Part shown: positions 11,332-56,916 of the stretch, one piece after another
Layout: each line of letters starts with the position of its first letter
Position numbering within the stretch: the first letter of the stretch is position 1
From: Corallococcus coralloides
Lineage (GTDB): Bacteria; Myxococcota; Myxococcia; Myxococcales; Myxococcaceae
Assembly (NCBI RefSeq): GCF_044792175.1
Contig: NZ_CP172866.1
DNA length: 64,000 bases
Direction: 5' to 3' (one strand)
Notes under the pieces: generated by a model
Told to the model about the DNA's origin: nothing
Databases searched by the model: none
The model's input: only the letters and a program-made list of their open reading frames with translations
Made by a program: the position numbers and the translations under genes

Positions 11332-11461
11332 CGCACCAAAGCCCGACGCCCGTCCCTGGCCGCTTGAGAGCGAGCAGGGTACGGGCGTCACGGGTGAACG
11401 TTCAGGGATGTTGTGACGTCAGGGGCGGGGCCTTCCCGGGCCCACCCGGACGGACCCGCAC

Positions 11462-11698
11462 TCAGGCGTGGGAGCTGGGCGACTTCGCGGCGACGTCCTT
11501 GTCCACGGTGGTGGACGCGGACAGCGTGCCGGGCTTCTTCTCGGAAGCGTCGTCCTTGTCCTCGTCGCTGGAGAAGCCGCGCTTGAAGTTGCGGAGCGCG
11601 CTGCCCAGGGACGAGCCGAGCTGCGGCAACCGCGAGCCGCCGAACAGCAGCAGCAGCGCCGCGAAAATCAGAAGAATCTCAGGAAGCTTCAATCCCAT
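11462..11698 (-). CDS. tatA: twin-arginine translocase subunit TatA/E
   Basis: MGLKLPEILLIFAALLLLFGGSRLPQLGSSLGSALRNFKRG followed by an acidic tail. The start is taken at the second Met. Confidence 0.8.
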   Translation of the reverse strand: MGLKLPEILLIFAALLLLFGGSRLPQLGSSLGSALRNFKRGFSSDEDKDDASEKKPGTLSASTTVDKDVAAKSPSSHA

Positions 11699-11776
11699 GG
11701 CTTCGCTCCTCACGAAATGCGTGGGGGAGCATACCGGTGGGAGGTGGGTCGCGCTAGCAACTCCAGCGGCCGGGGC

Positions 11777-12826
11777 TCATGCCTGCCAGCCCGCTGGCTG
11801 CCCGAGTTCCTCTGGCAGCGATAAGGGCAGCGTAAGGAAGAGGGTGGTGCCGCCCGCGTCCACCCGGCCACCCACCTGGCCGCCATGGGCCTCCACCTCC
11901 TGCCGGGCCAGGAAGACGCGCAGCGGATCCTCCAGCTTTCGCTCGCGGAAGGCCCGCGCCTCGCACTGGAAGACAGCGTCGATGTCCTCTTCCGGAACGG
12001 CCGCGCCCTCGCGGCGCACCTCCACCCGCACCTGGGGCCCCAGGCGCTCGGCGCGCACGTGGAGCGCCTCGCCCGGCTGCGCGCGCGCCAGCAGGTGGTG
12101 CACGAAGGCCTCCACCGCGTGCTGGATGCGGCCCGCGTCCACCGTCACGTCGGGCAGCTCCGGCAGCGCGTCCAGCACCAGCCCCACGTTGGCGGCGGAC
12201 GCCGCGGCGCGCGTGCGCTCCACCGCGGCATCCAGGATGGGCAGCAGCGGCTGCCGCTCCCGCTCACACGCGAGCGCGCCCAGGTCCGCGCGGCTGGAGT
12301 CGAAGAAGTCCTGGGCGAAGGAGAGCGCCCGGTCCGCGTTGCGCAGGATGGTCTCCAGCCCGCGCTGCGCCTTGGGCTCCAGCGGGATGCGCCCGTTGAG
12401 CAGCAGGGCCGCGTACGAGCGGATGTTGGCCAGCGACCCGCGCAGGTCGTGCGACGCGAGCGACAGGAAGCGCACGCGGTCCGCCACGCGCTCGCCCGGC
12501 GGTGAAGCCTGGGACACCTGGGGTGAACCCTGCTCCAGACTCCAGGGCACCGGCAGCGCCCAGACCAGGCGTCCGCCGTCCTCCAGCGGCTCCTCGCCCA
12601 CCAGCAGGACGCGCTCCTGGCGCTCCCACAGGTTGCGCTCGCCGTCCTTGCGGCGGAAGCCCGCGGCGGCCATCAGCCCGTCGATGCCCGTCGCGGTGGG
12701 CGCGGGGGGCAGGGCCTCCAGCCCCAGGTAGTCCAGGAGCAGGGGGCCGAGCAGGCGGGGTGTCCCCTGCCGCGGCAGCAGCGCGAGCCCCGGCGCGGCT
12801 TCGTTGCCTCCAGGCGTCTCCCCCAT
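11777..12826 (-). CDS. sensor histidine kinase (cytoplasmic, N-terminal sensory domain)
   Basis: H-box LSLASHDLRGSL and a C-terminal HATPase_c domain. The start is set at the internal Met (MGETPGG...) because the upstream part of the ORF overlaps the divergent response-regulator gene. Confidence 0.7.
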   Translation of the reverse strand: MGETPGGNEAAPGLALLPRQGTPRLLGPLLLDYLGLEALPPAPTATGIDGLMAAAGFRRKDGERNLWERQERVLLVGEEPLEDGGRLVWALPVPWSLEQGSPQVSQASPPGERVADRVRFLSLASHDLRGSLANIRSYAALLLNGRIPLEPKAQRGLETILRNADRALSFAQDFFDSSRADLGALACERERQPLLPILDAAVERTRAAASAANVGLVLDALPELPDVTVDAGRIQHAVEAFVHHLLARAQPGEALHVRAERLGPQVRVEVRREGAAVPEEDIDAVFQCEARAFRERKLEDPLRVFLARQEVEAHGGQVGGRVDAGGTTLFLTLPLSLPEELGQPAGWQA

Positions 12827-13033
12827 CCACGTCACGCGGGCCTCCCTGGCCGTGCCTCGAATCAACGGAAGGGTGGGCAGTGACTGTCGGTTTTGCAACG
12901 GGCTCCGGCTCCGTCCGCGGGCCCCTTGATTTCTTGCACCCGGGGGGCCAGTGATGGTGGAAGATCGACCTCCGGTAGCGGCATCGAGGAGACACCTCTG
13001 ACCTCGCTCAACGCACAGCATGCTGATGCACCC

Positions 13034-13408
13034 GTGGTGCTCGTCGTGGACGACGATCCCGACATCCTTGAAGCGCTCTCGGAGATCCTGGAGGCCGAGG
13101 GCTTCGAGATCCGCCGTGCCCGCAACGGCAAGGAGGCCCTGGAGCGCCTGGAACCGGACCCTCCGCACCTCATCCTCCTGGACCTGATGATGCCGGTGAT
13201 GGACGGCTGGGAGTTCGCCCAGCGCATGCGCCAGAAGCCGGCCTTCGCGGGCATCCCCATCATCGTCCTCAGCGCGGATCGCAACGTCGGCAGCAAGGCG
13301 AAGGACATCGGCGCCATGGGCCACCTGGCCAAGCCCTTCGAGCTCAACGACCTGCTGTCGATGGTGCGACAGTCCCTCGGCCCCTCGGCGGACACGTCGC
13401 GCGTCTGA
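13034..13408 (+). CDS. single-domain response regulator (CheY-like receiver)
   Basis: VLVVDDDPDILEAL...LILLDLMMPVMDGWEF...KPF. The start is uncertain: the in-frame start could lie anywhere from the TTG at 12893 to the GTG at 13034. Confidence 0.7.
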   Translation: MVLVVDDDPDILEALSEILEAEGFEIRRARNGKEALERLEPDPPHLILLDLMMPVMDGWEFAQRMRQKPAFAGIPIIVLSADRNVGSKAKDIGAMGHLAKPFELNDLLSMVRQSLGPSADTSRV

Positions 13409-13504
13409 GCACGCCCCCCGTGGCCGTGCTTGACCGGGGCCGTGGCGCGCCACTACGGTCCGCGCAGGCTTGATTCACCAATCAACGCTAAAAAGGAGCG
13501 AGTC

Positions 13505-13834
13505 ATGGCGAGCGCGAAGGACATCATCGAGACGCAGATTCCCGAGAAGCTTCAGGCGAAGCCGGAGCTGGCGAAGGACATCAACGCCATCATCCACTTC
13601 GACGTCTCCGGTGAGGGCGGCGGCAAGTGGACGCTGGACACCACCAAGCCGGACGGCTGGGTGTCCGAGGGTCTCAACGGCGCGTCGAAGATGACGGTCA
13701 CCGTCAGCAACGACGACTTCGTGAAGATCCGCGAGGGCAAGCTGAACCCGCAGATGGCCGCCATGCAGGGCAAGCTCAAGTTCAAGCCGATGGACATGGG
13801 CCTCGCCATGAAGCTGGCGAAGCTGCTGGCCTGA
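13505..13834 (+). CDS. SCP-2 sterol/lipid-transfer domain protein
   Basis: 109 aa with the SCP2 pattern ...IHFDVSGEGGGKWTLD...KLKFKPMDMGLAMKL. ATG at 13505. A GC hairpin (13858-13891) follows. Confidence 0.7.
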   Translation: MASAKDIIETQIPEKLQAKPELAKDINAIIHFDVSGEGGGKWTLDTTKPDGWVSEGLNGASKMTVTVSNDDFVKIREGKLNPQMAAMQGKLKFKPMDMGLAMKLAKLLA

Positions 13835-13926
13835 GCCTCTGAGTCTCGTGTCGTACCGACGGCGCGTCACCCCTGGCGGGGACGCGCCGTCTGCATGTCT
13901 CCACCTCCCCCCTGGAGCCCCGTTTC

Positions 13927-15105
13927 ATGCCTGAGCCGTCTGCCCCCCTCGCGGGCCTGCGGGTGTTGGACCTGTCACGCCTGCTGCCCGGCCCGTACGC
14001 GACGCTGGTGCTCGCGGACCTGGGCGCCACCGTGGACACGGTGGAGGACCCGGACGTGGGGGACGCCACCCGCCACATGCCGCCGCACCGTGACGGAGAG
14101 GGCGCGCTCTACTACGGGCTGCACCGCAACAAGCGCTCGCTCGCGCTGAACCTCAAGACGCCCGAGGGGCGTGACGCGCTCCTGCGCCTCGTGGCCCGCT
14201 ACGACGTGCTGGTGGAGAGCTTCCGCCCCGGCGTCATGGACAAGCTGGGCGTGGGCGAGGCGGTGCTGCGCCAGAAGAACCCGCGGCTCATCTACTGCGC
14301 CATCTCAGGCTACGGCCAGACGGGGCCGGACCGGCTCAAGGCGGGGCACGACCTCAACTACGTGGCCCGCGCGGGCCTGCTGGGCTACGGCGGCGAAGCC
14401 GGCGGCGCGCCCGCGTTCCCGGGCGTGCAGATGGCGGACATCGGCGGGGGCAGCCTCTTCGCGCTGGTGGGCATCCTGGCCGCGCTGCACGAGCGCCAGC
14501 GCACCGGCGTGGGCCGCTTCGTGGACGTGTCCATGACGGACGGCGCGCTCGCCTTCCTCCACCTGCACCTGGCCTCGCGCCTGTTCATGGGGCAGGAGGG
14601 CACGCCGCTCCAGCGAGGGAGCGAGCCGCTCAACGGCGGCTACCCCAGCTATGGCCTGTACCGCACCGCGGACGACCGCTGGCTCGCGGTGGGCGCGCTG
14701 GAGCCCAAGTTCTTCGGCGCACTCTGCGCGAAGCTGAGCCGCCCGGAGCTGCTGGATGACGCGTACTCAGGGGGCGAGGACGGCGCGCGCGTGAAGGCGG
14801 AGCTCGCCCGCATCCTCGCGAGCCAGCCCCTTGCGCACTGGCGCGAGCAGCTCTCCGGCCCGGAGTTCTGCGTGGAGCCGGTGGCGGAGGGCGACGAGGT
14901 GCTCGCGGATCCGCAACTGCGCGCGCGCGGCCTCTTCGTGGACGCGGACGATGCGCAGCGCGGCATCCGCGTGACACACCTGCTCACGCCGCTGCGCATG
15001 GGCGACGTCGCACTGCGTCCACCGCCCACGCTGGGACAGCACTCACGCGTCATCCTGGAAGACGCGGGTTTCACGGCCGAGGAAATCTCGCGCCTGCTTG
15101 CATGA
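13927..15105 (+). CDS. family III CoA-transferase (CaiB/BaiF; alpha-methylacyl-CoA racemase-like)
   Basis: LRVLDLSRLLPGPYATLVLADLGA N-terminus, a conserved Asp region, and about 392 aa in length. Confidence 0.8.
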   Translation: MPEPSAPLAGLRVLDLSRLLPGPYATLVLADLGATVDTVEDPDVGDATRHMPPHRDGEGALYYGLHRNKRSLALNLKTPEGRDALLRLVARYDVLVESFRPGVMDKLGVGEAVLRQKNPRLIYCAISGYGQTGPDRLKAGHDLNYVARAGLLGYGGEAGGAPAFPGVQMADIGGGSLFALVGILAALHERQRTGVGRFVDVSMTDGALAFLHLHLASRLFMGQEGTPLQRGSEPLNGGYPSYGLYRTADDRWLAVGALEPKFFGALCAKLSRPELLDDAYSGGEDGARVKAELARILASQPLAHWREQLSGPEFCVEPVAEGDEVLADPQLRARGLFVDADDAQRGIRVTHLLTPLRMGDVALRPPPTLGQHSRVILEDAGFTAEEISRLLA

Positions 15106-15169
15106 ACAACGCGTGAAACGAACCCAGGAGGGCGGGTTCGCACGCGGATCCAAAGTGACCCGTTGCTGA

Positions 15170-15232
15170 TTGACAGCTCCGGGGCCACAGTTAGATCTTT
15201 CCTGTTTTCTGACTGGAAAATCGACTTTCAAG
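15170..15232 (+). promoter_or_regulatory. candidate sigma-70-like promoter plus imperfect palindromic operator upstream of the ACP operon
   Basis: TTGACA (15170-15175), a 17-nt spacer, then TAGATC (15193-15198). Imperfect inverted repeat CTGGAAAATCGACTTTCAAG (15213-15232). The intergenic region is AT-richer than its surroundings. Confidence 0.35.
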
Positions 15233-15253
15233 CCCTGGGAAGGAAGGTCCCCC

Positions 15254-15550
15254 GTGCCCGACGCGCAGGAGCTCGAGTCATACATCCGCCGGAAGTTCGC
15301 AGAAAACGTGGGTCTCACGGAGGAGGAGTTGTTCGCCGAGGATCTCTCGCTCGCGGCGCTGATCACGCGCTCCGAGCGCATGACCAACAGCGTGGACCTG
15401 ATGGAGGCCTTTGCCCGCACGTCCAACGGGCTGCGCAAGGATTTTGGACTGCGGGTCCGCCTGCCGGCACTGTCCCTGGATACACCGGTGTCGCAGGTCC
15501 TGGCGGTCTTCATGGGTGAAGTCACGAACCCGGAGCGGAAGTCGGCATGA
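15254..15550 (+). CDS. stand-alone acyl carrier protein-like (ACP/PCP fold)
   Basis: 98 aa. GTG start behind GGAAGGAAGG. Carrier-protein core LSLAALITRSERMTNSVDLMEAF, with a Ser in an ADSLD-like context. Overlaps the next gene (ATGA). Confidence 0.6.
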   Translation: MPDAQELESYIRRKFAENVGLTEEELFAEDLSLAALITRSERMTNSVDLMEAFARTSNGLRKDFGLRVRLPALSLDTPVSQVLAVFMGEVTNPERKSA

Positions 15551-16506
15551 GCGTCCTGGCGCGCAGCCTCGAACACGAAGAAGCGACCGGCGTCCCCTCC
15601 AAGGCTCCTCCGGGCGAAGGCCGCCCGGCCATCCTGGCGGAGCTGTACGAAGCGCTCACCCAGCGGGGCATGTCGCTGGTGGACGTCACCTGGGAGCAGC
15701 AGCGCCTGCACGAGTCGCGGCGCTGGAGCGTGGTGGAGATGCTCTCCCACGTGGACTCCACACAGGTGGGTGAAGCCGACCGGCACCTGGTGTGGAACGC
15801 GGGGCGGGCGGAGCTGACGACGAAGCCGGGCGCGGACCGGCTGGAGCGGCTGGCGGACGGAGAGTGCCGCCGGTGGCAGGAGAAGAACCCCACCGTCGCC
15901 GCCATCATGCAGGCGTGCGGCACGTGGAGCCGCTACTGGAACGAGGAGGAGGCGCACCACGAGACGGCGTTCAACCGCCTGTCCTCGGTGCTGAAGCTGG
16001 AGCCCGTCAGCGACGCCACCTTCATCGAGTTCCGCAAGGTCTTCCCCGACGACGACATGCTGCGCACGCTCACGCTGCTGGCCATCTCCGAGGTGGTGGC
16101 GGCGGTGGACTACGGCCAGTGCTCGCAGAGGGTCCAGGACCCGGGCCTGCGCGCGCTGTTCAAGCAGGTGGCCGCGGACGAAGTGCAGCACATGAACTAC
16201 TTCATCGCCTTCGCCAAGGCGCTGGTGGACAGCGGCGCCTACAAGGCCAAGGAGGCGTTCGCGGTGGCGCACCTGTTCCTGCGCGACGGCGGCGAGGTGC
16301 ACGGCAGCAAGCGCGAGCGCGTGGAGAGCCGCGACACCCACGTCAACTGGTGGGATCAGTTGGAGCACCGCGAGGGCTTCTACGCGCCGGACGCGCTGCG
16401 CAAGAAGGAGCAGCTCATCTTCCACGCCCTCAAGCGCATCACCGGCATCACGGTGGCGTCGCGCGAGGAGGTGGAGGACACCTGGATGGACCTCGTCGGG
16501 TGCTGA
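15547..16506 (+). CDS. ferritin-like di-iron carboxylate enzyme (acyl-ACP desaturase / AurF-like oxygenase superfamily)
   Basis: 319 aa with two E-x-x-H motifs, WNEEEAHHETAF and ADEVQHMNYFIAF, plus additional conserved Glu (ISEVVAAVDYG). Soluble, no TM segments. Confidence 0.55.
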   Translation: MSVLARSLEHEEATGVPSKAPPGEGRPAILAELYEALTQRGMSLVDVTWEQQRLHESRRWSVVEMLSHVDSTQVGEADRHLVWNAGRAELTTKPGADRLERLADGECRRWQEKNPTVAAIMQACGTWSRYWNEEEAHHETAFNRLSSVLKLEPVSDATFIEFRKVFPDDDMLRTLTLLAISEVVAAVDYGQCSQRVQDPGLRALFKQVAADEVQHMNYFIAFAKALVDSGAYKAKEAFAVAHLFLRDGGEVHGSKRERVESRDTHVNWWDQLEHREGFYAPDALRKKEQLIFHALKRITGITVASREEVEDTWMDLVGC

Positions 16507-16871
16507 TGGGCCTGGGCCACGACCTCCAGGCCATCTCGGAGCTGGAGGCCGCGCGGGCCCTGCGGGAGCCGGACGTCTTCTTCACCGCCGCGGAGCTCGC
16601 CCACTTCGAGCGCGCGGCGGATCCGCTGCAGAGCCTGGCGGCGGGCTTCAGCGCGAAGGAGGCCCTCTTCAAGGCGCTGCCCGCGGTCGCCGGCTGGTTC
16701 TGGACGGACGCGGAGCTCGTCCACGACGCCCGGCACGCGCCGCGCTTCCGGTTTCACGGCACGCTCGCGGCGCACCTGGCGCGCGAGGCCCTGCAGGTCG
16801 CTGTCTCGCTGTCACATAGCGGAGGGTTCGTCTCGACGGTGGTCATCGTGACGCGCGCTCCGTCTCCCTGA
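16506..16871 (+). CDS. holo-ACP synthase (AcpS-type 4'-phosphopantetheinyl transferase), operon-dedicated copy
   Basis: 121 aa with MGLGHDLQAISE... and FSAKEALFKAL motifs. The ATG overlaps the previous stop by 1 nt. Confidence 0.7.
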   Translation: MGLGHDLQAISELEAARALREPDVFFTAAELAHFERAADPLQSLAAGFSAKEALFKALPAVAGWFWTDAELVHDARHAPRFRFHGTLAAHLAREALQVAVSLSHSGGFVSTVVIVTRAPSP

Positions 16872-16910
16872 AGTCGCTGTCCCCCCCGGCAGCCAGAAGG
16901 ACATCCCCCC

Positions 16911-17357
16911 GTGCACTTCGAAGAGTCGTCCCTGACGCTGCGCGTGCGCCCCAACGACCTGGACACCCTGGGGCACGTGAACAACGCCACCACGCTGGAG
17001 TACCTGGAGGCCGGCCGTTGGGCCTGGCTGGAGCGGCAGGGGCTGACGCGCGGGGGGACGGTGGTGGCCGTGGTGTCGCGCGTGGAGGTGGACTACCGCC
17101 GCGAGATTCCCCCGGGCGACGTGGTGGTGCACACGGAGCTGGAGTCACCCGCGGCGGACGAGCTGGAGGAGGACGGCCTCAACTACCGCGCGCGCTTCCG
17201 GCAGCGCGTGTTCCTGGCGGCGGACGGGCCGGTGGCGGTGGAGGCGCTGGTGAGCGTGGCCTTCCTGAACGCGCGGGAGCGGTCGCTCGCGTCGCTGCAG
17301 CAGTTCCTGGCCGCCGCGCGCGCCCCGGCGGCCCCCGTGGAGGATCCGCGCCCATGA
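16911..17357 (+). CDS. hotdog-fold acyl-CoA/ACP thioesterase (4HBT/YbgC-like)
   Basis: 148 aa containing LDTLGHVNNATTLEYLEAGRWAWL. GTG start. Confidence 0.7.
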   Translation: MHFEESSLTLRVRPNDLDTLGHVNNATTLEYLEAGRWAWLERQGLTRGGTVVAVVSRVEVDYRREIPPGDVVVHTELESPAADELEEDGLNYRARFRQRVFLAADGPVAVEALVSVAFLNARERSLASLQQFLAAARAPAAPVEDPRP

Positions 17358-18271
17358 GCACGAACGCGAAGCCGGAGCTCGCGTCCCTGGAGTTCTGGGT
17401 GCCCACGTCCCAGGAGCACGCGCTGCACGTCGTGGAGGCGCGCCTGTCCGGGACACGGGACTCCGCGCCCGGCGTGCTCTTCGTGCCGGGGCTGTTCTCC
17501 GACGGCCGCTTCTTCCTGGGCGCGCAGGGTGACGGGGCCGCGCGCACGTTCGTGGACGCGGGCTGCGTGGCCTACGTCGCGTCCCTGCGCGGGCACGGCA
17601 AGAGCCGCTGGCCCGCGAAGCGCGCGTACGACTGGAGCTTCGACACGTACGTGCGCCACGACATCCCGGACCTGGTGCGGGCCGTGCGCGCGCGGCACAC
17701 CGGGCCGCTGTTCCTGCTGGCCCACAGCATGGCGGGCTACGCGGCGCTGGCGGCCCTGGGGGTGGACCCCTCGCTCCAGGCCGCGGTGTCTGGCGTGTGC
17801 ACGCTGTCCTCGGCGGTGAACGACTACAGCGACGGCGGGTTCAAGAAGCGCTTCCAACTGGGCTTCTCGGCCGCGCTGGCGGGGCTGCTGGGGCGCTTCC
17901 CGGCGAAGGCGCTGAAGCAGGGGCCCTGGGACGAACCGGCGGGCGTGATGCGGCAGTTCACGGACTGGGCGCCCACGGGCGCGTTCCGCAGCGCGGACGG
18001 CGCGACGAACTACTGGAGCGCGCTGCGCGACGTGACGCTGCCGGTGTTCGCGGGCGTGGGCGCGGCGGACCTGTTCCATGCGTCACCGATGCGCGTGGAG
18101 AAGCTGGTGGCCCACCTGGGCGGCACCCGCAAGGAGCTGGCCGTGCTGGGGCGCGCGCAGGGGCTGAGCTGGGACGCGGGCCACTTCGACGTGGTGCGCG
18201 GAGAGCGCGCCCGCGCGGAGGTGCTGCCCCGTGTGCTCGCGTGGATGCGCCAGGTGGCGCCCGCGCACTGA
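17354..18271 (+). CDS. alpha/beta-fold hydrolase
   Basis: 305 aa with nucleophile elbow AHSMAGY (GxSxG) and a GHGKS motif. The start overlaps the previous stop (ATGA). Confidence 0.7.
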   Translation: MSTNAKPELASLEFWVPTSQEHALHVVEARLSGTRDSAPGVLFVPGLFSDGRFFLGAQGDGAARTFVDAGCVAYVASLRGHGKSRWPAKRAYDWSFDTYVRHDIPDLVRAVRARHTGPLFLLAHSMAGYAALAALGVDPSLQAAVSGVCTLSSAVNDYSDGGFKKRFQLGFSAALAGLLGRFPAKALKQGPWDEPAGVMRQFTDWAPTGAFRSADGATNYWSALRDVTLPVFAGVGAADLFHASPMRVEKLVAHLGGTRKELAVLGRAQGLSWDAGHFDVVRGERARAEVLPRVLAWMRQVAPAH

Positions 18272-18296
18272 AGAACCCGGAGGGGAGGCTTTTCAC

Positions 18297-20048
18297 ATGC
18301 TCGACATCATCCAGCGGTTGGAGGCGGTGGACCCGCGGCGCGGCCTGTTTCTCTACGACGACTTCGTCGGGCCGCCGGAGTTCGTGCCCTACCGGGAGTT
18401 CGCCTCCCGGGTGGCCGGGGCGGCGGAGCACTTCCGCGCGCGCGGCGTGGCGCCGGGCACGCGCGTGGTGCTGCCCTTCGAGACCTCCTCGTCCGTCATC
18501 TTCGCCTTCCTGGCGCTGATGGAGCTGGGCGCGGTGCCCCTGTCCGTGAAGCCGTACATCCTGAGCACGCCGAAGGGGCCCTACCGGGAGTTCCTCGGGC
18601 GCATCCGCGAGCGCTACGGCGCGCAGCTCGTGCTGGACGTGTCCAGCCTGGCCGGCCTGGAGCTGCCCCTGGAGCGCCTGCCGCCGCCGCCCGCGGGCGC
18701 GAAGCGTCCGGGAGCGAAGCTGCGCGAGGTGGCGCCGGAGGAGCTGGCGTTCGTGCAGTTCTCGTCGGGGTCCACGTCGTTCCCCAAGGGCGTGCCCATC
18801 ACCCACGAGAACCTGGCCGCGAACCTGCGGATGATCATCCGGCACGACGGCCGCACGGCCGAGGACCGGGTGACGAGCTGGCTGCCGCTCTACCACGACA
18901 TGGGGCTCATCGGCGGGCTGCTCACCTGCATCACGGTGGGCAATGACCTGCTGCTGTCCCAGCCCGCGTCGTTCCTGATGGACCCGCTGGGCTGGCTGGA
19001 GCTCATCTCCTCCGAGAAGGTGATGGGCTCCGTCATCCCCAACTTCGCCATCGACTACGCGCTCAAGTCGCTCAAGTCGGCGGACGCGGAAGATTTGAAG
19101 CGGCTGGACCTGTCGCGCGTGCAGAGCATCTACCTGGGCAGCGAGCCCATCAACATCCCCAACCTGGAGCAGTTCCTGGAGATCCTCGCCCCGTGCGGCC
19201 TGCGGCGCGACGTGTTCATGCCCTGCTACGGCATGGCGGAGACGGTGCTGATGGTCGCGAGCGTGCCGCCGCGCCAGACGGTGCGCGTCATCACCGCGCC
19301 CAACGGCCAGCCGGCCATCTCCGTGGGCCGCCCGCTGACGGAGTTCGAGGTGCGGCTGCGCGCCGAGGACGGCCGGCCGTGCGGCGAGGGCGAGATGGGG
19401 GAAATCGAGCTGCGCGGCGGCAGCCTGGCGCCGTCGTACTTCCTGGATGACCGGCCCCTGCGCGGCGAGGACGGCTTCTACGCCACGGGCGACCTGGGCT
19501 TCCTGAAGGAGGGCGAGCTCTTCATCACCGGGCGCATCAACGACCGCATCAAGGTGAACGGCCAGAGCTTCTTCTCCGCGGACTTCGAGCAGGCCGTGGA
19601 GCGGCTGGCCTTCATCCGCCCGGGGCGCACCGCCGTCATCCAGGTGAAGGGGCGCCTCGTGGTGCTGGCGGAGGTGAACCACCCGTCCGCGCTGGAGCGC
19701 CTGGAGGCCAGCCGCAAGCAGGTCTGTCAGTCGGTGCTGGAGACGGTGGGCGTGACGCTCGCGCAGGAGGACGTCCTCTTCATCCGCTACGGCCAGCTCC
19801 AGAAGACGAGCAGCGGCAAGCTCCAGCGCCGCGCCATCACGGAGGCCTACGAGCAGGGCCGCATCCGCACCGTGACGCCCATGGAGCTGAGGGCGGACCT
19901 GCTCCAGATGCGCGCGCAGCGGCTCGTGCTGGGCTCCGTGATGGTCGCGCGGCAGCGGGGCCGGCGGTGGATGGCCTCCGGGAAGGCGGCGCTCACCGCG
20001 GGCCTCCAGCGGCTCAAGCCTGGGGGCCGGCGTCAGGACGGGCCCTGA
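18297..20048 (+). CDS. fatty acyl-AMP ligase (FAAL) / acyl-ACP synthetase-like adenylating enzyme
   Basis: 583 aa with AMP-binding motifs FSSGSTSFPKGV and YGMAETVL. ATG behind GGAGGGGAGG. The FAAL assignment (rather than CoA ligase) is inferred from the co-operonic ACP and PPTase. Confidence 0.65.
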   Translation: MLDIIQRLEAVDPRRGLFLYDDFVGPPEFVPYREFASRVAGAAEHFRARGVAPGTRVVLPFETSSSVIFAFLALMELGAVPLSVKPYILSTPKGPYREFLGRIRERYGAQLVLDVSSLAGLELPLERLPPPPAGAKRPGAKLREVAPEELAFVQFSSGSTSFPKGVPITHENLAANLRMIIRHDGRTAEDRVTSWLPLYHDMGLIGGLLTCITVGNDLLLSQPASFLMDPLGWLELISSEKVMGSVIPNFAIDYALKSLKSADAEDLKRLDLSRVQSIYLGSEPINIPNLEQFLEILAPCGLRRDVFMPCYGMAETVLMVASVPPRQTVRVITAPNGQPAISVGRPLTEFEVRLRAEDGRPCGEGEMGEIELRGGSLAPSYFLDDRPLRGEDGFYATGDLGFLKEGELFITGRINDRIKVNGQSFFSADFEQAVERLAFIRPGRTAVIQVKGRLVVLAEVNHPSALERLEASRKQVCQSVLETVGVTLAQEDVLFIRYGQLQKTSSGKLQRRAITEAYEQGRIRTVTPMELRADLLQMRAQRLVLGSVMVARQRGRRWMASGKAALTAGLQRLKPGGRRQDGP

Positions 20049-20057
20049 GCCCGGGGC

Positions 20058-21161
20058 TCAACGGGCCTTCGTGGAGGCCCACAGGTCCCACCCGCGCGCC
20101 GCGTGGCACGCATCGCCCACCAGGTCCAGGGCGAGCTGGGGCTGCGTCCTGGCCAGCGCCTCCGTGTCGCGGAAGGCGCCCGTGGCCTCCAGCCTCAGCG
20201 TGGCGTGCTCCAGCGCGGCCTTCGCCTCCGCCACCGCCCGGGCCTGCGCGGGCGTGGGCTTCCAGCCCGTCTCGTCCCGGTAGCGCCCCAGCGCCTCCAG
20301 GAAGTGGCCGTGGAACTTCACCATCTGCACCAGCACCGGGACGCGGTACGCGGGCGCGGCGGTGAGGGCGGCCTCGTACTGCTTCGCCTCCGAGCCCTGC
20401 CGGTACACCAGCACGTCCACCTGCGCGTCCAGCCGCGCGCCCCAGGCCTTGCGCACGGCGGGGAAGCGCGCCCAGCCCGCGACGGCCTGGAAGAAGTGGA
20501 GCCCTCCACACGGGTGCGCGTAGATGCCCTGCCTGTTCTTGGGCACCTGGGGGAGGCCCGCCTTCATGCCCCGCATCAGCTCCGCGTTCGCGGACTCCAG
20601 CGTGGCGAGCGCGGCGTCCATCACCGCGTCCATGCGCACCGTCTCACCCGCGCCGTTGACGAACGCGCCCCCGGGCTCCAGCACGTGGGACAGCGCGTCC
20701 AGCGCCCACGCTCCGTCCGGCGAGGTGGCGAGCGCGGGGCGGAAGTCGTGCTGGAGCGACGCCACCAGCTCCCGCAGCGTCACCTTTCCCCACGCGGTGG
20801 GGAACGCCTGCGAGCGCGGGTAGCCCGCGAGCAGGAACGTCTTCACCTGGAGCGCCGGGTGGGGCTCCACGGGCGTGCCGTCCGGGGTGAAGGCGTCGAA
20901 GAAGTAGCGGGCCGCGCCCCCCGCGTCGGGGGCGTCCCGGCGCAGGAACCCCGCGACGATGGCGTCCGAGGCCGGGCGGCCGTCCCGCGCGCGGAACGCC
21001 TTCCCGTCCAGGTCCATGCCGTGCGCGAGCGCCCAGGGCCTGGAGGGATCCGCCGCGTGCGCGCGGCACTGCGTATGGAGCACCGCGGGCGCGGAAGGAG
21101 GGGAGGGCGGGGGCGCGGCGCTCAGGCCGAGCCCGAGCAGGGCCACGAAGGAGGGGAGCAT
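20058..21161 (-). CDS. secreted hypothetical protein
   Basis: Signal peptide MLPSFVALLGLGLSAAPPPS; no motif I recognised. Convergent with the FAAL gene. Confidence 0.5.
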   Translation of the reverse strand: MLPSFVALLGLGLSAAPPPSPPSAPAVLHTQCRAHAADPSRPWALAHGMDLDGKAFRARDGRPASDAIVAGFLRRDAPDAGGAARYFFDAFTPDGTPVEPHPALQVKTFLLAGYPRSQAFPTAWGKVTLRELVASLQHDFRPALATSPDGAWALDALSHVLEPGGAFVNGAGETVRMDAVMDAALATLESANAELMRGMKAGLPQVPKNRQGIYAHPCGGLHFFQAVAGWARFPAVRKAWGARLDAQVDVLVYRQGSEAKQYEAALTAAPAYRVPVLVQMVKFHGHFLEALGRYRDETGWKPTPAQARAVAEAKAALEHATLRLEATGAFRDTEALARTQPQLALDLVGDACHAARGWDLWASTKAR

Positions 21162-21213
21162 GGGCGCGGGCAGTGTCGCAGCCCGCGCCCGTCCACGCAC
21201 CTGGGAGCCGTCC

Positions 21214-21756
21214 TCAGCGCGGCGGGGCGCTGGCCTTCATGCGGGCGAGCATCCGCTCGATGATGCCGAACAGCGCCTCGCGGTCCTCCTCGGGAAGCAG
21301 GCCCATCAACCGGCGGATGCCCGCGTCCGTCATCAACTGGATGACCTTGTAGATTTCACAGCCCCGGTCGGTGAGCTTCGCGGTGACGGCGCGGCGGTCC
21401 TCCGCGTCCCGGCCGCGCTCCACCATGCCCATGTCCTCCAGGCGGTCCACCACGCCGGTGATGGTCTTCTTGGTGATGCCGATGCGCTGGGCCAGCACCC
21501 CGACCTGGGTGGGGCCGTCCATGCCCAGCCACCCCAGCGCGTGCACCTGGGTGGGGGTCAGCCGCATGTCGTCGCAGAGGCTCGCCAGCGGGTCCCTCAG
21601 GGAGCGGAAGTGGGCCAGCTCCCGGATGAGCCCCATGAAGCGGCGCGAGTCCGGCGTGGACTGGTCCCCCTCCTGGAGCAGGCGCTCCATCATGGCCTTC
21701 TCGTCGGCGGCTTCGTCCTTCCCCTCGGAGCGCGCGTCCGGCTCCGAGGGCGGCAT
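21214..21756 (-). CDS. MarR family transcriptional regulator
   Basis: Winged-helix region LTPTQVHALGWLGMDGPTQVGVLAQRIGITKKTITGVVDRLE. It is the last gene of the efflux operon. Confidence 0.75.
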   Translation of the reverse strand: MPPSEPDARSEGKDEAADEKAMMERLLQEGDQSTPDSRRFMGLIRELAHFRSLRDPLASLCDDMRLTPTQVHALGWLGMDGPTQVGVLAQRIGITKKTITGVVDRLEDMGMVERGRDAEDRRAVTAKLTDRGCEIYKVIQLMTDAGIRRLMGLLPEEDREALFGIIERMLARMKASAPPR

Positions 21757-21776
21757 GATGGAGGTGGGGCGGCGCA

Positions 21777-24926
<3,150 letters not shown>

Positions 24927-24964
24927 TCAGGTACCCAGGAAAGAAGAGGGGAGGGCAGGGACCG

Positions 24965-26065
24965 CTACTGCGCGACGCGCACGGCGGTCCCCTCCTTGAC
25001 GTCCAGCGAGGCGTCGGCGAGCACGCGCTCCTCCGCCGTCAGGCCCTGCAGCACCTTCACGTAGCCCGGCAGCACGCGCTGCACGCGCACGTCGCGCTTG
25101 CGCACGGTGCCGTCCTGCACCACCCACACGAAGCCGTCCTGGCCCTTGCTGCTGACGGCCTGCGCCGGCAGGAACAGGCCGTTGCCCGCGTCACCCGCGG
25201 CCTTGGAGAAGTCCATCTCCACCAGCGCGCCGGGGCGCAGCGGGTGGTCCGTCTTGCCCGTCACGTCCGCCAGCACCTCCACGGTGCGGCTCTGCGCGTC
25301 GATGACGGCGCCCACGTTGGCCACCTTCGCCTCGAAGCGCATGCCGCTGGGGTTCACGGTGCCCGGCGTCACCGTGCCCGGCGTCACGTTGTCGATGACG
25401 GACTCCGGCACCATCATCCGGATCTCCAGCCCGTCCGTGTCCACGATGGAGAACACCGGCGTGGAGGGCGTCATCGCCACGGAGTCACCCACGTTCTTGT
25501 TGCGCGCGGTGATGATGCCGTTGAAGGGCGCCACGATGTTGTGGTCGCGCAGGTTCTCCAGCGCCAGCCGGTAGGCCGCGCCCGCCTGGGCCGCCTGGGC
25601 CGCGGCCTGCTTCTGGCCAATCTCCACCTGCTCCAGCGCGTTGGCCGCGACACCGCCGGACTCGGCGACCTTGCGGGTGCGCTCCAGGTTGCTGGTGGCC
25701 AACTGCAGCGCGGCCTCCGCCATGTCCTTGGCCGCCTTCGCCTGGTCCACCGCGATGGCCACGTTGGACGTGTCCAACTGCGCCAGCACGTCGCCCTTCT
25801 TCACCTTGTCGCCCACCCGGACGTTCACCTTCGCGAGCGTGCCCGTCGCCTGGGGACCCAGGACGGCCTCCTGCTTGGAGCGGACCTGCCCCGTCACGCG
25901 CGTCACGTTCTGCTCCAGCTCCGTGGCCGGGGTGATGGCCTTGACGCCCAGCGCGTTGGAGCCTTCCTGCTGCGCCGGAAGCTGCGCCTTCTCCGCGCCC
26001 GCCTTCGAGCACCCCGCCGTCGACACCGCCACGGCCACCACGGCAGCCAAGATTCGCTGATTCAC
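24965..26065 (-). CDS. RND efflux membrane-fusion protein (HlyD family), lipoprotein
   Basis: Lipobox STAGC. Coiled-coil and beta-barrel MFP pattern. Contains a tandem TPGTVTPGTV. Confidence 0.85.
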   Translation of the reverse strand: MNQRILAAVVAVAVSTAGCSKAGAEKAQLPAQQEGSNALGVKAITPATELEQNVTRVTGQVRSKQEAVLGPQATGTLAKVNVRVGDKVKKGDVLAQLDTSNVAIAVDQAKAAKDMAEAALQLATSNLERTRKVAESGGVAANALEQVEIGQKQAAAQAAQAGAAYRLALENLRDHNIVAPFNGIITARNKNVGDSVAMTPSTPVFSIVDTDGLEIRMMVPESVIDNVTPGTVTPGTVNPSGMRFEAKVANVGAVIDAQSRTVEVLADVTGKTDHPLRPGALVEMDFSKAAGDAGNGLFLPAQAVSSKGQDGFVWVVQDGTVRKRDVRVQRVLPGYVKVLQGLTAEERVLADASLDVKEGTAVRVAQ

Positions 26066-26397
26066 GCGTCCGAACTCCTGCCGGGTCGCCGGCGGGACAC
26101 CCGCCCTGGCACCTGCTCCGGCTAATTCTTTGTGGGCTAGAAATTACCGACGCTCGATTATCTGTCAAGAGGATACTCCGGAGTGCGGACTATCCACTCC
26201 CCAGTCATCCTGCGGGGTTGGCTGCTTGCCCTGCCGAGCTTCAGACTTCTTCACAACACCGGTGCCGGCGCGCTGCGTCACCAGGAAGGCGGGCGCCGGG
26301 CGGGGTGGGGACGGGGCGCGTCGCTTGTGGCTGACGCCGGGGGCCTGTTATTGACTCGCGAATCAACCCACAGCGGGACAACCCCCGAGGACTCGCG

Positions 26398-29007: not shown

Positions 29008-29058
29008 AACAGCGAAGGGAACGCCAGGGACGCGGGCGGCGTCTAGAGTGCCGCCCCT

Positions 29059-32000
29059 ATGGCTTCTCCACCACGCTCGCGTCCCGCCGCCGTCGTCCTG
29101 TGTCTGCTGTCCCTCGCGCTGTCCTCCGTGTCCGTGGCCGCCCCCGCGAAGGGGCCCCCGACGTGGAAGGCCATCGACGCGCTCGTCGAGGACGACAAGG
29201 TGGAGTCCGCCGCGCAGGGGGCCGAGGCCCGGCTCGCCGCGGCGAAGGCCCAGGGTGACGCCGACGAGTGGACGCGCGCGCTGGTGCGCACGGTGCAACT
29301 GCGCACGCGGCTGCATGGCTATGAGACGACGGTGCGCTTCCTGCGTGAACAGCCCTGGCCGGAGGGGCTGCGGCAGCAGGCCACGCTCCACCTGTTCTAC
29401 GCGGCGGTGCTCGCGAACTACCAGCAGTCGTACAGCTATGAGATTGGCCAGCGCGAGCAGGTGGTGTCCTCCGGGCCGGTGGACCTGAAGGCGTGGACGA
29501 AGGATCAGATTTCAGCGGAGATCCAGCGCACCTACGCCGCCGTCTGGGAGTCGCGGCAGAAGTTCGGCACGGAGCCCGTGAAGGGGCTGTCCGAGTACAT
29601 CCAGCCCAACACCTATCCGGACGGCATCCGGTCCACGGTGCGCGACGCGGTGACGTACCTGTGGGTGGACTCGCTGGACGACACGGACCTGTGGCGCCCG
29701 GAGCAGGAGCAGGGCGTGTACCGGCTGGACCTGGGCGCGCTGCTGGAGGGCACGCCGAAGGTGGAGCTGAAGGACCCGTCCGTGCATCCGCTGCTGAAGG
29801 TGGCGGCGGTGCTGGGGGACCTGGAGGCGTGGCACCTGGCGGCGGGCCGGCGCGAGGCGGCGCTGGAGGCGCGGCTGCGGCGCTACGCGGCGATGGAGGC
29901 GTCGTTCACCGAGGCCGCGGACAAGCGGCGCATCCGTGAGCACCTGGCCGCGCACCTGAAGGGCTTCCGGGACGTGCCGTGGTGGTCCAAGGGGCAGTTC
30001 GAGCTGGCGGCGCTGGAGCAGCAGGCGGGCCGCGCCATCACCGCGCATGCCCTGGCGAAGGCGGGCGCGGAGGCGTGGCCGAAGTCGGTGGGCGGCATGC
30101 AGTGCGCGGCGCTGGTGGGGAGCCTGGAGGCGCCGGAGCTGTACGCGACCGGGATGCAGGTGGACGGGCCGGGCAAGCGCTCCATCCTGGTGGGCCACCG
30201 CAACGTGGGCGCGGTGTACTTCCGGGCGTACGCGCTGGACGTGGAGGCGCGGCTCGCGAAGCCCGACGAGGACCTGTCGCTGTTCCCCTCCACCGCGGAG
30301 ATGCTGCGCATGGTGGCGTCTCGCAAGCCGGACGCCGCGTGGAGCACGGCGCTGCCGCCCACGCCGGACTTCCAGCGGCACCAGACGTTCGTGACCCCGC
30401 CCGCGCTCAAGCCGGGCGCATACGTCATCGCCCTGTCCACGCGCGAGGACTTCGCGAAGAAGAACAGCCGGATCCTCTCCCTGCCGATGTCCGTGTCGCC
30501 CTGGGCGGTGACGGTGCGCAAGGCGAACCCCAACCAGGCGGAGGTCCACGTGGTGGACGGGGCCACGGGGGCGGGCGCCGCGAACGTGGAGGTGCGGCTG
30601 GTGACGTCGGACTACCGCACCCGCCGCTTCGGGGTCACCAGCCGCCGCACGGACGCGAACGGCGACCTGCTGGTCACGGGCTCGGACGCCAACCGCTACG
30701 AGGACATGCAGTTGGTGGTGGGCCGGGGCAAGGGCGTGATGGTGGTCCCGGGGTCGATGTACCTGTCCTCCGCCCATGAGCCGTCCCTGGATGACCAGAC
30801 GCTCATCTACACGGACCGCGCCGTCTACCGTCCCATGCAGAAGCTGCTGTGGAAGGTGGTGGCCTACCGTCCGGAGGTGGCGTCCAAGCGCTACCGCGTC
30901 CTGCCGGACTCGCCGGTGACGGTGACGCTCGTGGACCCCAACGGCCAGGAGGTGTCCAAGCGCGAGGCCCGCACCAACACGTTCGGGTCGGTGGCGGGTG
31001 AGTTCGACATCCCCTCGGGGCGGCCGCTGGGCCAGTGGACGGTGCGCACCCGCCCCAACGGCTACGCGAACGTGCGAGTGGAGGAGTACAAGCGGCCCAC
31101 CTTCGAGGTGACGCTGAAGGACGCGCCGGAGGCCCTGCGGCTCAACCGGCGCGCGACGTTCAAGGGCGAGGCCCGCTACTACTTCGGCCTGCCGGTGACG
31201 CGCGGCGCGGTGAAGTGGCGCGTGTCGCGCGAGCCGGTGCTGCCGCGCTGGTGGTTCTGGGAGCGCATCCCGGCCACCACGGACCTGGTGGCCTCCGGGA
31301 CGGCCACGGTGGGGGAGGACGGCGGCTTCACCGTGGCGTTCACCCCGGAAGCGGACGAGCGGCTCGCGAAGGCGCAGGGCATGTCGTGGCGCTACCGCGT
31401 GGAGGCGGACCTGACGGACGAGGGCGGTGAGACGCGCTCCGCGAGCCGCGCCTTCCGCCTGGGCTTCGTGTCGGTGGAGGGCCGCGTGGACTCCGACGTG
31501 GGCTTCGTCCGCGAGGACTTCCCGTCGGAGGTGCGGCTCGTCCGCTCGAACCTGGATGGCGCGCCGCAGGCCGGACCGGGCCGCTGGCGGCTCATCGCCC
31601 TGAAGGCTCCGGGCCGTCCGCTGATGCCGTCGGAGGTCCCGGTGGACAGGCCCAAGCCCCTGGACGCGGACGCGCAGTCGCTCAAGGAGACCTCCCCCAC
31701 GCCGGGGGATTCGCTCAAGGCGCGCTGGGACACGAGCTACGACGTGGAGCAGACGCTGCAGCGCTGGGACGACGGCGCGGAGGTGGCGCAGGCTGCGGTG
31801 ACGCATGGCGCGGACGGGGTGGCCACCGTGAAGCTGCCGGCGCTGCGCGCGGGGGCGTACCGCCTGCGCTACGAGACGACGGATCCGTTCGGTCAGAAGG
31901 CCACCGCGCAGCGGGACTTCGTGGTGGCGGGAGCCCGGGCTCCGGCGGGGCTGCCCGCGGTGCTGGCGGCGGAGCGCGCCTCCGTGCGCGTGGGCGAGGT

Positions 32001-53895: not shown

Positions 53896-53982
53896 CCAGC
53901 AAAAAGTGCAGTGAAAACCGCCACATCCTATCGGGCGGGCGCAAGGCTTGGGAAGTTTCCGAGCAGCGCTCGGTCGGCTGCC

Positions 53983-56787: not shown

Positions 56788-56916
56788 GCGGTCGCAGGAT
56801 ACTTGGACAGGGGTGAGGTGTCATCGGGCGTGACGGATGAAGTAGGGGGTCGGCGGAACAACACATCCCGTGACGGATGCGTTGACCCCCTGTATGCCGC
56901 GTCATAACGAGGCGAG

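Follow-up and report, generated by a model that had tools for sequence, protein, structure and literature searches.

The 64,000-nucleotide stretch of the Corallococcus coralloides genome analyzed here (hereinafter, the window; contig NZ_CP172866.1, GC content 70.5%) contains a compact cluster of six genes that encode, in this order, a carrier-like protein of 98 amino acids, a soluble protein of 319 amino acids with a predicted di-iron site (hereinafter, the di-iron protein), a phosphopantetheinyl transferase of the AcpS type, a hotdog-fold thioesterase, an α/β-hydrolase and a fatty acyl-AMP ligase (hereinafter, FAAL). The positions of these genes and of the other features discussed below are given in Table 1.

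The open reading frame (ORF) of the di-iron protein belongs to a mechanically produced ORF list and translates without stops over its full length. Its GC fractions at the first, second and third codon positions (0.69, 0.43 and 0.95) match the pattern of real genes in this high-GC genome, and no ORF overlapping it passes the same codon-position GC filter. It is, thus, a genuine protein-coding gene. The gene is also translationally coupled to its neighbors on both sides: the stop codon of the carrier-like protein gene overlaps its start (ATGA), and its own stop overlaps the ATG of the AcpS gene (TGATG). The remaining genes follow on the same strand and are closely packed, with 39 nt between the AcpS and thioesterase genes and an overlap of the thioesterase stop with the ATG of the hydrolase gene at 17354 (ATGA). 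The longest ORF of the FAAL begins at GTG 18231, and its likeliest start is ATG 18297, which is preceded by the ribosome-binding site GGAGGGGAGG. A scan of 13300-21400 for promoters and terminators yielded nothing above the shuffled expectation, and the base composition of the cluster is not distinct from that of its flanks.

The AcpS protein matches PF01648 (41.6 bits against a cut-off of 25, E 1.4e-10) and TIGR00556 (46.4 against 45.35), and so qualifies as a phosphopantetheinyl transferase. The thioesterase matches PF13279 (E 8.6e-16) and, in the PDB, the hotdog thioesterases 2fuj, 2cye and 1njk. The FAAL combines PF00501 (1.6e-49) with PF23024 (2.5e-11), and the top 18 entries of its PDB ranking consist mostly of named FAALs and of loading domains of the FAAL type (3pbk from Escherichia coli, 3kxw from Legionella, FadD23, FadD32, FadD28 and McyG). 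The best E-values in this ranking are 1e-58 to 1e-30, whereas the top-ranked acyl-CoA ligase, 3g7s, reaches only 1e-22; the best NCBIfam matches are FAAL models as well, every one below its cut-off. These sequence comparisons support assignment to the FAAL class rather than to the acyl-CoA ligases. The initial annotation of this locus, which had been made from the DNA sequence alone, listed AcpS, FAAL and an acyl carrier protein (ACP) next to the di-iron protein. The first two are confirmed by these profile hidden Markov model (HMM) and PDB matches; the ACP gene is present as well, but no PP-binding HMM recognizes its 98-residue product.

The di-iron protein: metal site, fold and family

The two ExxH motifs of the di-iron protein lie within WNEEEAHHETAF, which has the WxxEExxH form likewise present in acyl-ACP desaturases, and ADEVQHMNYFIAF, which has the AADExxH form. 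About 1.2 ExxH per protein are expected from composition by chance, so that the motif pair by itself is weak evidence. It is conservation that goes beyond chance: six residues, E89, E135, H138, E182, E212 and H215, are each retained in 80-81 of the 82 orthologous ORFs, which come from six phyla. The one or two deviating ORFs also depart from the consensus, or have gaps, at most of the other conserved positions, and the wrong ORF had probably been picked there. The paired motifs and additional conserved glutamates pointed out in the initial annotation are confirmed. The top relative by sequence among solved structures is Mycobacterium tuberculosis DesA2 (E 0.006 with the single sequence and 0.004 with the family profile). 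This alignment spans the first ExxH, the third glutamate and the second ExxH, with WNEEEAHHETAF facing WTAEEHLH and ADEVQHMNYFIAF facing ARDEVRHEEF of DesA2, and all proposed ligands except E89 align to the corresponding DesA2 residues.

The AlphaFold2 model of the di-iron protein (mean predicted local distance difference test score, pLDDT, 76.8) is all-helical, with long helices at residues 115-148, 171-195 and 199-229. E182 lies 13 residues ahead of the end of its helix and E212 lies 13 residues past the start of the next one; E89 is about 21 residues before the end of a kinked helix, 76-110, and E135 is 20 residues after the start of the helix at 115. The ligand partners suggested by these helix registers are E89 and E135, and E182 and E212. 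Both E89 and the TTxPG that follows it are also retained in the nearest sister family, as seen by hhalign. An alternative first glutamate ligand, E106, is disfavored by its location only four residues from the helix end, versus 20 residues in for E135, and by a gap at this position in the sister family, where E89 is kept. H137 was rejected as a ligand because it is not conserved, being replaced by F in 17 and by Y in 3 orthologs. Position 134 is E in 80 of the 82 orthologs, and position 208, where the HxxDExxH motif of CylC and AurF has a histidine, is V or I. Judging by helix register and alignment, the predicted metal site is a classical set of two histidines and four carboxylates, complete and conserved. 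The contrary outcome considered in the initial annotation, a non-catalytic ferritin or DUF family with incomplete ligands, is, accordingly, not what was found. The family also has invariant motifs of its own, namely, WEQQRLHESRRWS and NAGRAELTTKPG in the N-terminal part and THVNWWD and ALKRITGI in the C-terminal part.

The maximum 19-residue Kyte-Doolittle hydropathy of the di-iron protein is 1.29 and its grand average of hydropathy (GRAVY) is -0.44; therefore, no transmembrane helix is expected and the protein should be soluble, as initially proposed, rather than a membrane desaturase of the FADS or JamB type. A Foldseek comparison of the model with the PDB retrieves R2lox, acyl-ACP desaturases and aldehyde-deformylating oxygenase (ADO) at E about 1e-2. 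R2lox, a class marked by a Ribonuc_red_sm-type sequence, a Mn/Fe site and a Tyr-Val crosslink, is level with the top structural neighbors, yet has no sequence or HMM match to the di-iron protein, and ADO structures rank only among the lower fold matches. By its model, the protein belongs to the fold class of large, soluble, ferritin-like oxidases of the R2/desaturase type.

Within this fold class, sequence favors the desaturases, weakly but consistently. The best HMM match is the one named in the initial annotation, PF03405, FA_desaturase_2 (18.2 bits, E 0.0012), as obtained in the profile comparison recommended there. This model is also the best match of all 20 aligned family members, each at E<=0.01 (best E 4.6e-06), and some orthologs carry a precomputed PF03405 match and the NCBI name acyl-ACP desaturase. 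Rubrerythrin is the only other model that surfaces, with 19.2 bits against a cut-off of 22.8, and both matches are sub-threshold; the Pfam search detected no match to Ribonuc_red_sm, ADO or BioE-like models and none to PF11583 (AurF) even at E<=10, and NCBIfam provided nothing useful, with EncB at a meaningless E of 0.13. On the HMM evidence, AurF, ADO, R2 and rubrerythrin were rejected as family assignments. Of the options originally put forward, the acyl-ACP desaturase one is favored, whereas an AurF-type N-oxygenase, which would have three histidine and four carboxylate ligands, is not supported, given the lack of a PF11583 match and the replacement of the third histidine ligand by Val or Ile. 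A small oxygenase of the ADO/BioE kind does not fit either, with 319 amino acids compared to about 200-230 and no match to the ADO model.

The family is small, uncharacterized and forms a tight, isolated clade. A search of 185,579 species, each represented by one genome, yielded 83 relatives with 54-93% identity, the closest ones (92-93%) coming from Corallococcus. A word-indexed search returned 295 relatives; among the best 120 of these 295, which include proteins of Streptomyces, Kitasatospora, Frankia and Nannocystaceae, identity is 67% or higher throughout. An exhaustive search against 1.84 billion representatives detected only 29 clusters at E<=1e-3, and full-length ones are few.

The closest outgroup is a ‘ferritin-like’ Pseudomonas protein of 393 amino acids (P0252, from locus L086; hhalign probability 97.6%, 29% identity over 173 columns), which shares all six proposed ligands and TTxPG with the di-iron protein. 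It is uncharacterized, and its cassette differs from the one described here in having a canonical PP-binding ACP, no AcpS and another gene order. In this Pseudomonas metagenome contig, the genes at L086:8001-12245 are arranged as di-iron protein, 4HBT, ACP, FAAL, 4HBT_2. Another outgroup protein, of 421 amino acids, resides in an apparently uncharacterized array at L087:3553-8981, ordered ACP, FA_desaturase_2, FAAL, di-iron protein, membrane desaturase, and an outgroup di-iron protein of 338 amino acids is encoded inside a type-II-PKS-like (polyketide synthase) cluster with an ACP.

The carrier-like protein, the conserved cassette and its surroundings

The 98-residue protein encoded upstream of the di-iron gene has a putative phosphopantetheine-attachment residue, Ser46 (nt 15389-15391), within the motif NSVDLMEAFA, which starts at N45 and is invariant in 27 homologs. 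The AlphaFold2 model is confident (pLDDT 87.7) and helical, and Ser46 opens its second long helix, 46-64. In the four-helix fold of carrier proteins, the conserved serine that bears phosphopantetheine canonically stands at this position, the N-terminus of helix II, in a (D/N)S(L/V)D motif. The top Foldseek matches of the model in the PDB are almost all ACPs, DltC and ACPs of PKS, at weak scores (E 0.2-2, TM 0.5-0.6), and two homologs bear the UniRef name ‘Carrier domain-containing protein’. Given the fold, the invariant Ser46 and the dedicated AcpS and FAAL, we accept this protein as a putative, divergent and atypical carrier, on the basis of fold, motif and context rather than sequence homology.

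The conservation of the gene cluster was assessed by comparing 85 loci that contain the di-iron gene, using tblastn with the neighbors from the window, and the matches counted here have the same order and strand. The carrier-like protein gene is found beside the di-iron gene in 83 loci, the thioesterase in 82, the FAAL in 81, AcpS in 66 and the α/β-hydrolase, an optional member, in 41. The cassette is represented in Myxococcota, Actinomycetota, Cyanobacteria, Beta- and Gammaproteobacteria, and Acidobacteriota, and the di-iron protein retains 55-93% identity across these six phyla. When the ORFs surrounding the di-iron gene were clustered all against all, no further gene family common across phyla emerged. 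Housekeeping genes (MurD, GlyS, RsmD and peptidases) flank the cassette in a Gallionellaceae genome and in the cyanobacteria Nostoc and Oscillatoria, which implies that it is self-contained and lies outside any cluster for a PKS or a nonribosomal peptide synthetase (NRPS). Membership in a PKS/NRPS cluster was rejected on these cross-phylum flanks and because the window otherwise contains housekeeping or regulatory genes.

In Myxococcaceae, the cassette has lineage-specific surroundings. Upstream are a FadD-like ligase, a response regulator, an SCP2 protein and a CoA-transferase, and the part of this set at 12893-15105 is kept in 16-18 loci, all myxobacterial. The downstream set at 20058-26143, on the opposite strand, is kept in 10-16 loci, again only myxobacterial; AcrB, a pump of the resistance-nodulation-division (RND) superfamily, and the membrane-fusion protein possibly comprise an export system. 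The first ORF of this set, encoding a 380-residue protein, has no Pfam or NCBIfam match and follows the FAAL directly in 16 loci, all from myxobacteria.

Table 1. Positions in the window of the cassette genes, the predicted metal-site features of the di-iron protein and the neighboring genes
Feature	Position	Strand	Basis or remark
Carrier-like protein, 98 aa	15254-15550	+	GTG start behind GGAAGG ribosome-binding site
Di-iron protein, 319 aa	15547-16506	+	listed ORF, conserved ligand set
AcpS-type phosphopantetheinyl transferase (holo-ACP synthase), 121 aa	16506-16871	+	PF01648, TIGR00556
Hotdog-fold thioesterase (4HBT_2, YbgC/FadM-like), 148 aa	16911-17357	+	PF13279
α/β-Hydrolase, 305 aa	17354-18271	+	Pfam Hydrolase_4/Abhydrolase_1; optional cassette member
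FAAL, 583 aa	18297-20048	+	PF00501 and PF23024; ATG 18297 behind GGAGGGGAGG
Motif WNEEEAHHETAF	15937-15972 (aa 131-142)	+	first ExxH (E135/H138), WxxEExxH form
Motif ADEVQHMNYFIAF	16174-16212 (aa 210-222)	+	second ExxH (E212/H215), AADExxH form
Predicted ligand codon, E89	15811-15813	+	conservation
Predicted ligand codon, E135	15949-15951	+	conservation, DesA2 alignment
Predicted ligand codon, H138	15958-15960	+	conservation, DesA2 alignment
Predicted ligand codon, E182	16090-16092	+	conservation, DesA2 alignment
Predicted ligand codon, E212	16180-16182	+	conservation, DesA2 alignment
Predicted ligand codon, H215	16189-16191	+	conservation, DesA2 alignment
Response regulator	12893-13408	+	Myxococcaceae context, outside cassette
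SCP2 lipid-carrier protein	13430-13834	+	Myxococcaceae context, outside cassette
Family III CoA-transferase	13927-15105	+	Myxococcaceae context, outside cassette
380-aa protein, high GC3	20058-21200	-	Myxococcaceae context
MarR regulator	21214-21777	-	Myxococcaceae context
RND pump AcrB	21777-24926	-	Myxococcaceae context
Membrane-fusion protein	24965-26143	-	Myxococcaceae context

In Actinomycetota, a transporter of the major facilitator superfamily (MFS) is encoded directly upstream of the cassette in 22 loci. The actinobacterial copies (L025-L057) contain either the hydrolase alone, between the thioesterase and FAAL genes (15 loci), or a crotonase/enoyl-CoA hydratase alone, after the FAAL gene (13 loci), never both, and two loci have neither. 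Because the two genes are mutually exclusive in this phylum, the α/β-hydrolase and the crotonase might represent interchangeable accessory steps.

Beside the cassette in 15 actinobacterial loci, many of them from Streptomyces and Kitasatospora (L003/L026:1321-4462 and equivalents), is a divergently transcribed set of genes for a 597-residue AMP-binding enzyme, a ThiS-like small protein and a 286-residue protein, joined in two inspected loci by a long protein resembling acyl-CoA dehydrogenases that elsewhere gives weak tblastn matches. About 4 kb upstream of the cassette of Kitasatospora sp. NBC_01266 is a nitric-oxide synthase gene (L002:3822-5039); as a nitration partner it was rejected, having been seen in this one locus only, and the adjacency is probably coincidental. 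In the window itself, 11364-13474 contains two long ORFs that overlap on opposite strands, a histidine kinase (HisKA and HATPase_c) on the minus strand at 11777-13453 and a plus-strand ORF at 11364-12731, probably a shadow ORF, with no match. The start of the response regulator gene, too, is overlapped by the kinase, so that the start or extent call of one of these two genes is doubtful. Other large genes, unrelated to the cassette, are located within 29047-35124 and 49291-56820 and encode a bacterial alpha-2-macroglobulin of 2025 residues, a response-regulator/coiled-coil protein (crescentin-like) of 1563 residues and a glycosyltransferase of 945 residues.

Proposed function and alternatives

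With a probability of roughly 0.65, the di-iron protein is an O2-dependent oxidase that acts on an acyl-carrier thioester loaded by the FAAL and whose product the thioesterase sets free. The same estimate applies to the part of this reading that concerns the genes, namely, that the five to six of them form a self-contained cassette that has spread horizontally. The acyl-ACP-directed oxidase proposed in the initial annotation from the operon context gains from the retention of the cassette across six phyla and from the location of the outgroups next to PP-binding and FAAL genes. By analogy with these outgroups, the entire ferritin-like branch would appear to act on carrier-tethered acyl chains, a notion that their carrier and FAAL neighbors support.

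Starting from what was computed here, that is, the reality of the gene, the ligand set, the fold class, and the composition and conservation of the cassette, we infer substrate loading, electron donor, chemistry, product release and export as follows. The cassette AcpS would attach the phosphopantetheine arm to Ser46 of the carrier-like protein, and the FAAL would adenylate a free fatty acid and transfer it to this arm. The di-iron protein would then bind the acyl-carrier thioester and oxidize the chain using O2 and two electrons provided by a ferredoxin/reductase of the host. The hotdog thioesterase would hydrolyze the modified acyl-carrier and free the product; in many lineages, a further step could be performed by the α/β-hydrolase or the crotonase. 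The product is probably exported, possibly via the RND pump in the window and via the MFS transporter in actinomycetes.

Several observations weigh against this scheme. The PF03405 score of the whole di-iron protein is below the gathering cut-off of 22.7 bits, and the match covers just positions 96-221 of 325, in the center of the model. The fold search does not separate desaturases from R2, R2lox and ADO. As the initial annotation cautioned, the type of reaction cannot be read from the sequence. Identification of the 98-residue protein as an ACP by sequence homology failed: Pfam and NCBIfam, PP-binding included, give no match to it or to three orthologs even at E<=10, there is no PDB sequence match, and hhalign of its family against the PP-binding ACPs of two sister cassettes gives a probability below 1%. 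AcpS was not detected by tblastn in 19 of the 85 loci, and the cassette contains no ferredoxin or reductase gene.

As for the chemistry, desaturation is the most likely outcome, followed by hydroxylation; desaturation is ranked first because FA_desaturase_2 is the nearest family. Hydroxylation, epoxidation or chain cleavage may be the outcome instead. The acyl-ACP desaturases (PF03405, including the castor Δ9 stearoyl-ACP desaturase and DesA1/DesA2) catalyze the O2- and ferredoxin-dependent desaturation of an acyl-ACP. They share with the di-iron protein the set of two histidines and four carboxylates, provided by two (D/E)ExxH motifs and two further glutamates on a four-helix bundle, and the large, soluble, ferritin-like fold. 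They differ from it in that identity to the solved members is only about 12-17%, the family cut-off is not reached and the alignment takes in no more than the central half of the model, and in that, here, the substrate would be presented not by the housekeeping ACP but by an atypical carrier private to the cassette, which has an AcpS and a FAAL of its own.

The overall logic of the cassette has precedents. In the CylA/CylB/CylC and NocO systems, which belong to cyanobacterial natural-product pathways, an ACP of its own receives the fatty acid from a FAAL, and the tethered chain is then functionalized by a di-iron enzyme of the ferritin-like type (PMC8406957, PMC12101540), so that the operon logic of FAAL, carrier and di-iron enzyme is the same. 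Hence the conceivable alternative that the di-iron protein is a di-metal halogenase of the CylC/NocO type that chlorinates an unactivated carbon of a carrier-bound acyl chain, for which one could also cite the cyanobacterial origin of some cassette genomes and a Thiohalocapsa locus with a nearby flavin oxidoreductase that weakly matches Trp_halogenase. However, the CylC/NocO halogenases have QExxH and HxxDExxH motifs, three histidines and three glutamates, and an open halide site (PMC12101540), whereas the di-iron protein has EExxH and (V/I)AADExxH, retains all four carboxylates and does not match the AurF model. Because the halogenase motifs with their open coordination site are absent, halogenation is an unlikely outcome, and we give such an enzyme hardly any credence. 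Moreover, the present cassette, unlike CylA/CylB/CylC, lies outside PKS/NRPS clusters, has its own AcpS and thioesterase, and occurs mostly outside cyanobacteria. In JamA/B/C and the polyyne cassettes, a FAAL, an ACP, one or more desaturases and a thioesterase modify a carrier-bound fatty acid (PMC11837247, PMC8406139, PMC9828172), but these desaturases are integral membrane proteins of the FADS type (PF00487), whereas the di-iron protein is soluble and ferritin-like. Four features, then, set the cassette apart from the Cyl, Jam and polyyne systems: a soluble desaturase-like oxidase, a non-canonical carrier, AcpS and thioesterase of its own, and a stand-alone organization.

Oxidative C-C cleavage or one-carbon loss, as in BioE or ADO, would leave an acid that is shortened or dicarboxylic, or else a hydrocarbon. 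BioE is a di-iron enzyme with two histidines and four glutamates that acts on long-chain acyl-ACP or acyl-CoA and can cleave C-C bonds, converting acyl-ACP to pimeloyl-ACP and a shorter acid (PMC12704756). It is, however, an ADO-like protein with a native dimer of about 47-50 kDa, encoded in a biotin operon with BioL, and its first ligands, E26 and E53, are spaced by 27 residues (PMC12704756), compared to 46 in the di-iron protein, which is about 100 residues longer, shows no detectable sequence similarity to BioE and matches no ADO or BioE-like model. Furthermore, neither biotin genes nor an acyl-ACP reductase are present in the window or the inspected loci, and we consider this chemistry unlikely. 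Less likely still appears a role unrelated to acyl chain oxidation, in which the di-iron protein would bind a ligand or act as a scaffold in an R2lox-like manner, or would be a di-iron enzyme for a non-lipid substrate, and the 98-residue protein would be its partner subunit. The level ranking of R2lox in the structure comparison is compatible with such a role, but a dedicated AcpS and a FAAL would have little purpose in the absence of a carrier, the model of the 98-residue protein retrieves ACPs almost exclusively and has an invariant serine at the canonical position, the sister cassettes employ genuine PP-binding ACPs in the same role, and Ribonuc_red_sm is not matched.

Beyond the preferred assignment as an oxidase acting on a FAAL-loaded carrier, a bolder and speculative proposal, doubtful as it stands, is that one conserved lipid, an exported signal or defense molecule, is the product of the cassette and that the di-iron reaction leading to it differs from both ordinary desaturation and hydroxylation. 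Such a reaction might form a terminal alkene or alkyne, or it might epoxidize, cleave or otherwise rearrange the chain on the private, non-canonical carrier, and the lipid may be common to distant bacteria that have exchanged the cassette, including myxobacteria, Streptomyces, Kitasatospora, Frankia, Nostoc and some proteobacteria. If this were the case, the di-iron protein would found a new family of ferritin-like oxidases and the 98-residue protein a new family of carriers. We found no paper describing the cassette in the full-text literature, which is absence of evidence only, most subscription journals being outside its coverage.

Selective functionalization of unactivated C-H bonds of fatty-acyl chains is hard chemistry. 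To our knowledge, a new reaction has so far come with every soluble di-iron family that acts on acyl chains bound to a carrier, namely, desaturation by the desaturases, halogenation by CylC and cleavage by BioE. Genome-mining pipelines that require a PP-binding match would miss the carrier-like protein. Here, a small, soluble di-iron protein is accompanied by a loader, a carrier, an activator and a release enzyme in one compact operon, and, given this completeness and the conservation across phyla, it should be possible to reconstitute the pathway directly, either in vitro or by heterologous expression. The cassette is less a conceptual surprise than a clean target for the discovery of an enzyme and its product, which could be a widespread exported lipid.

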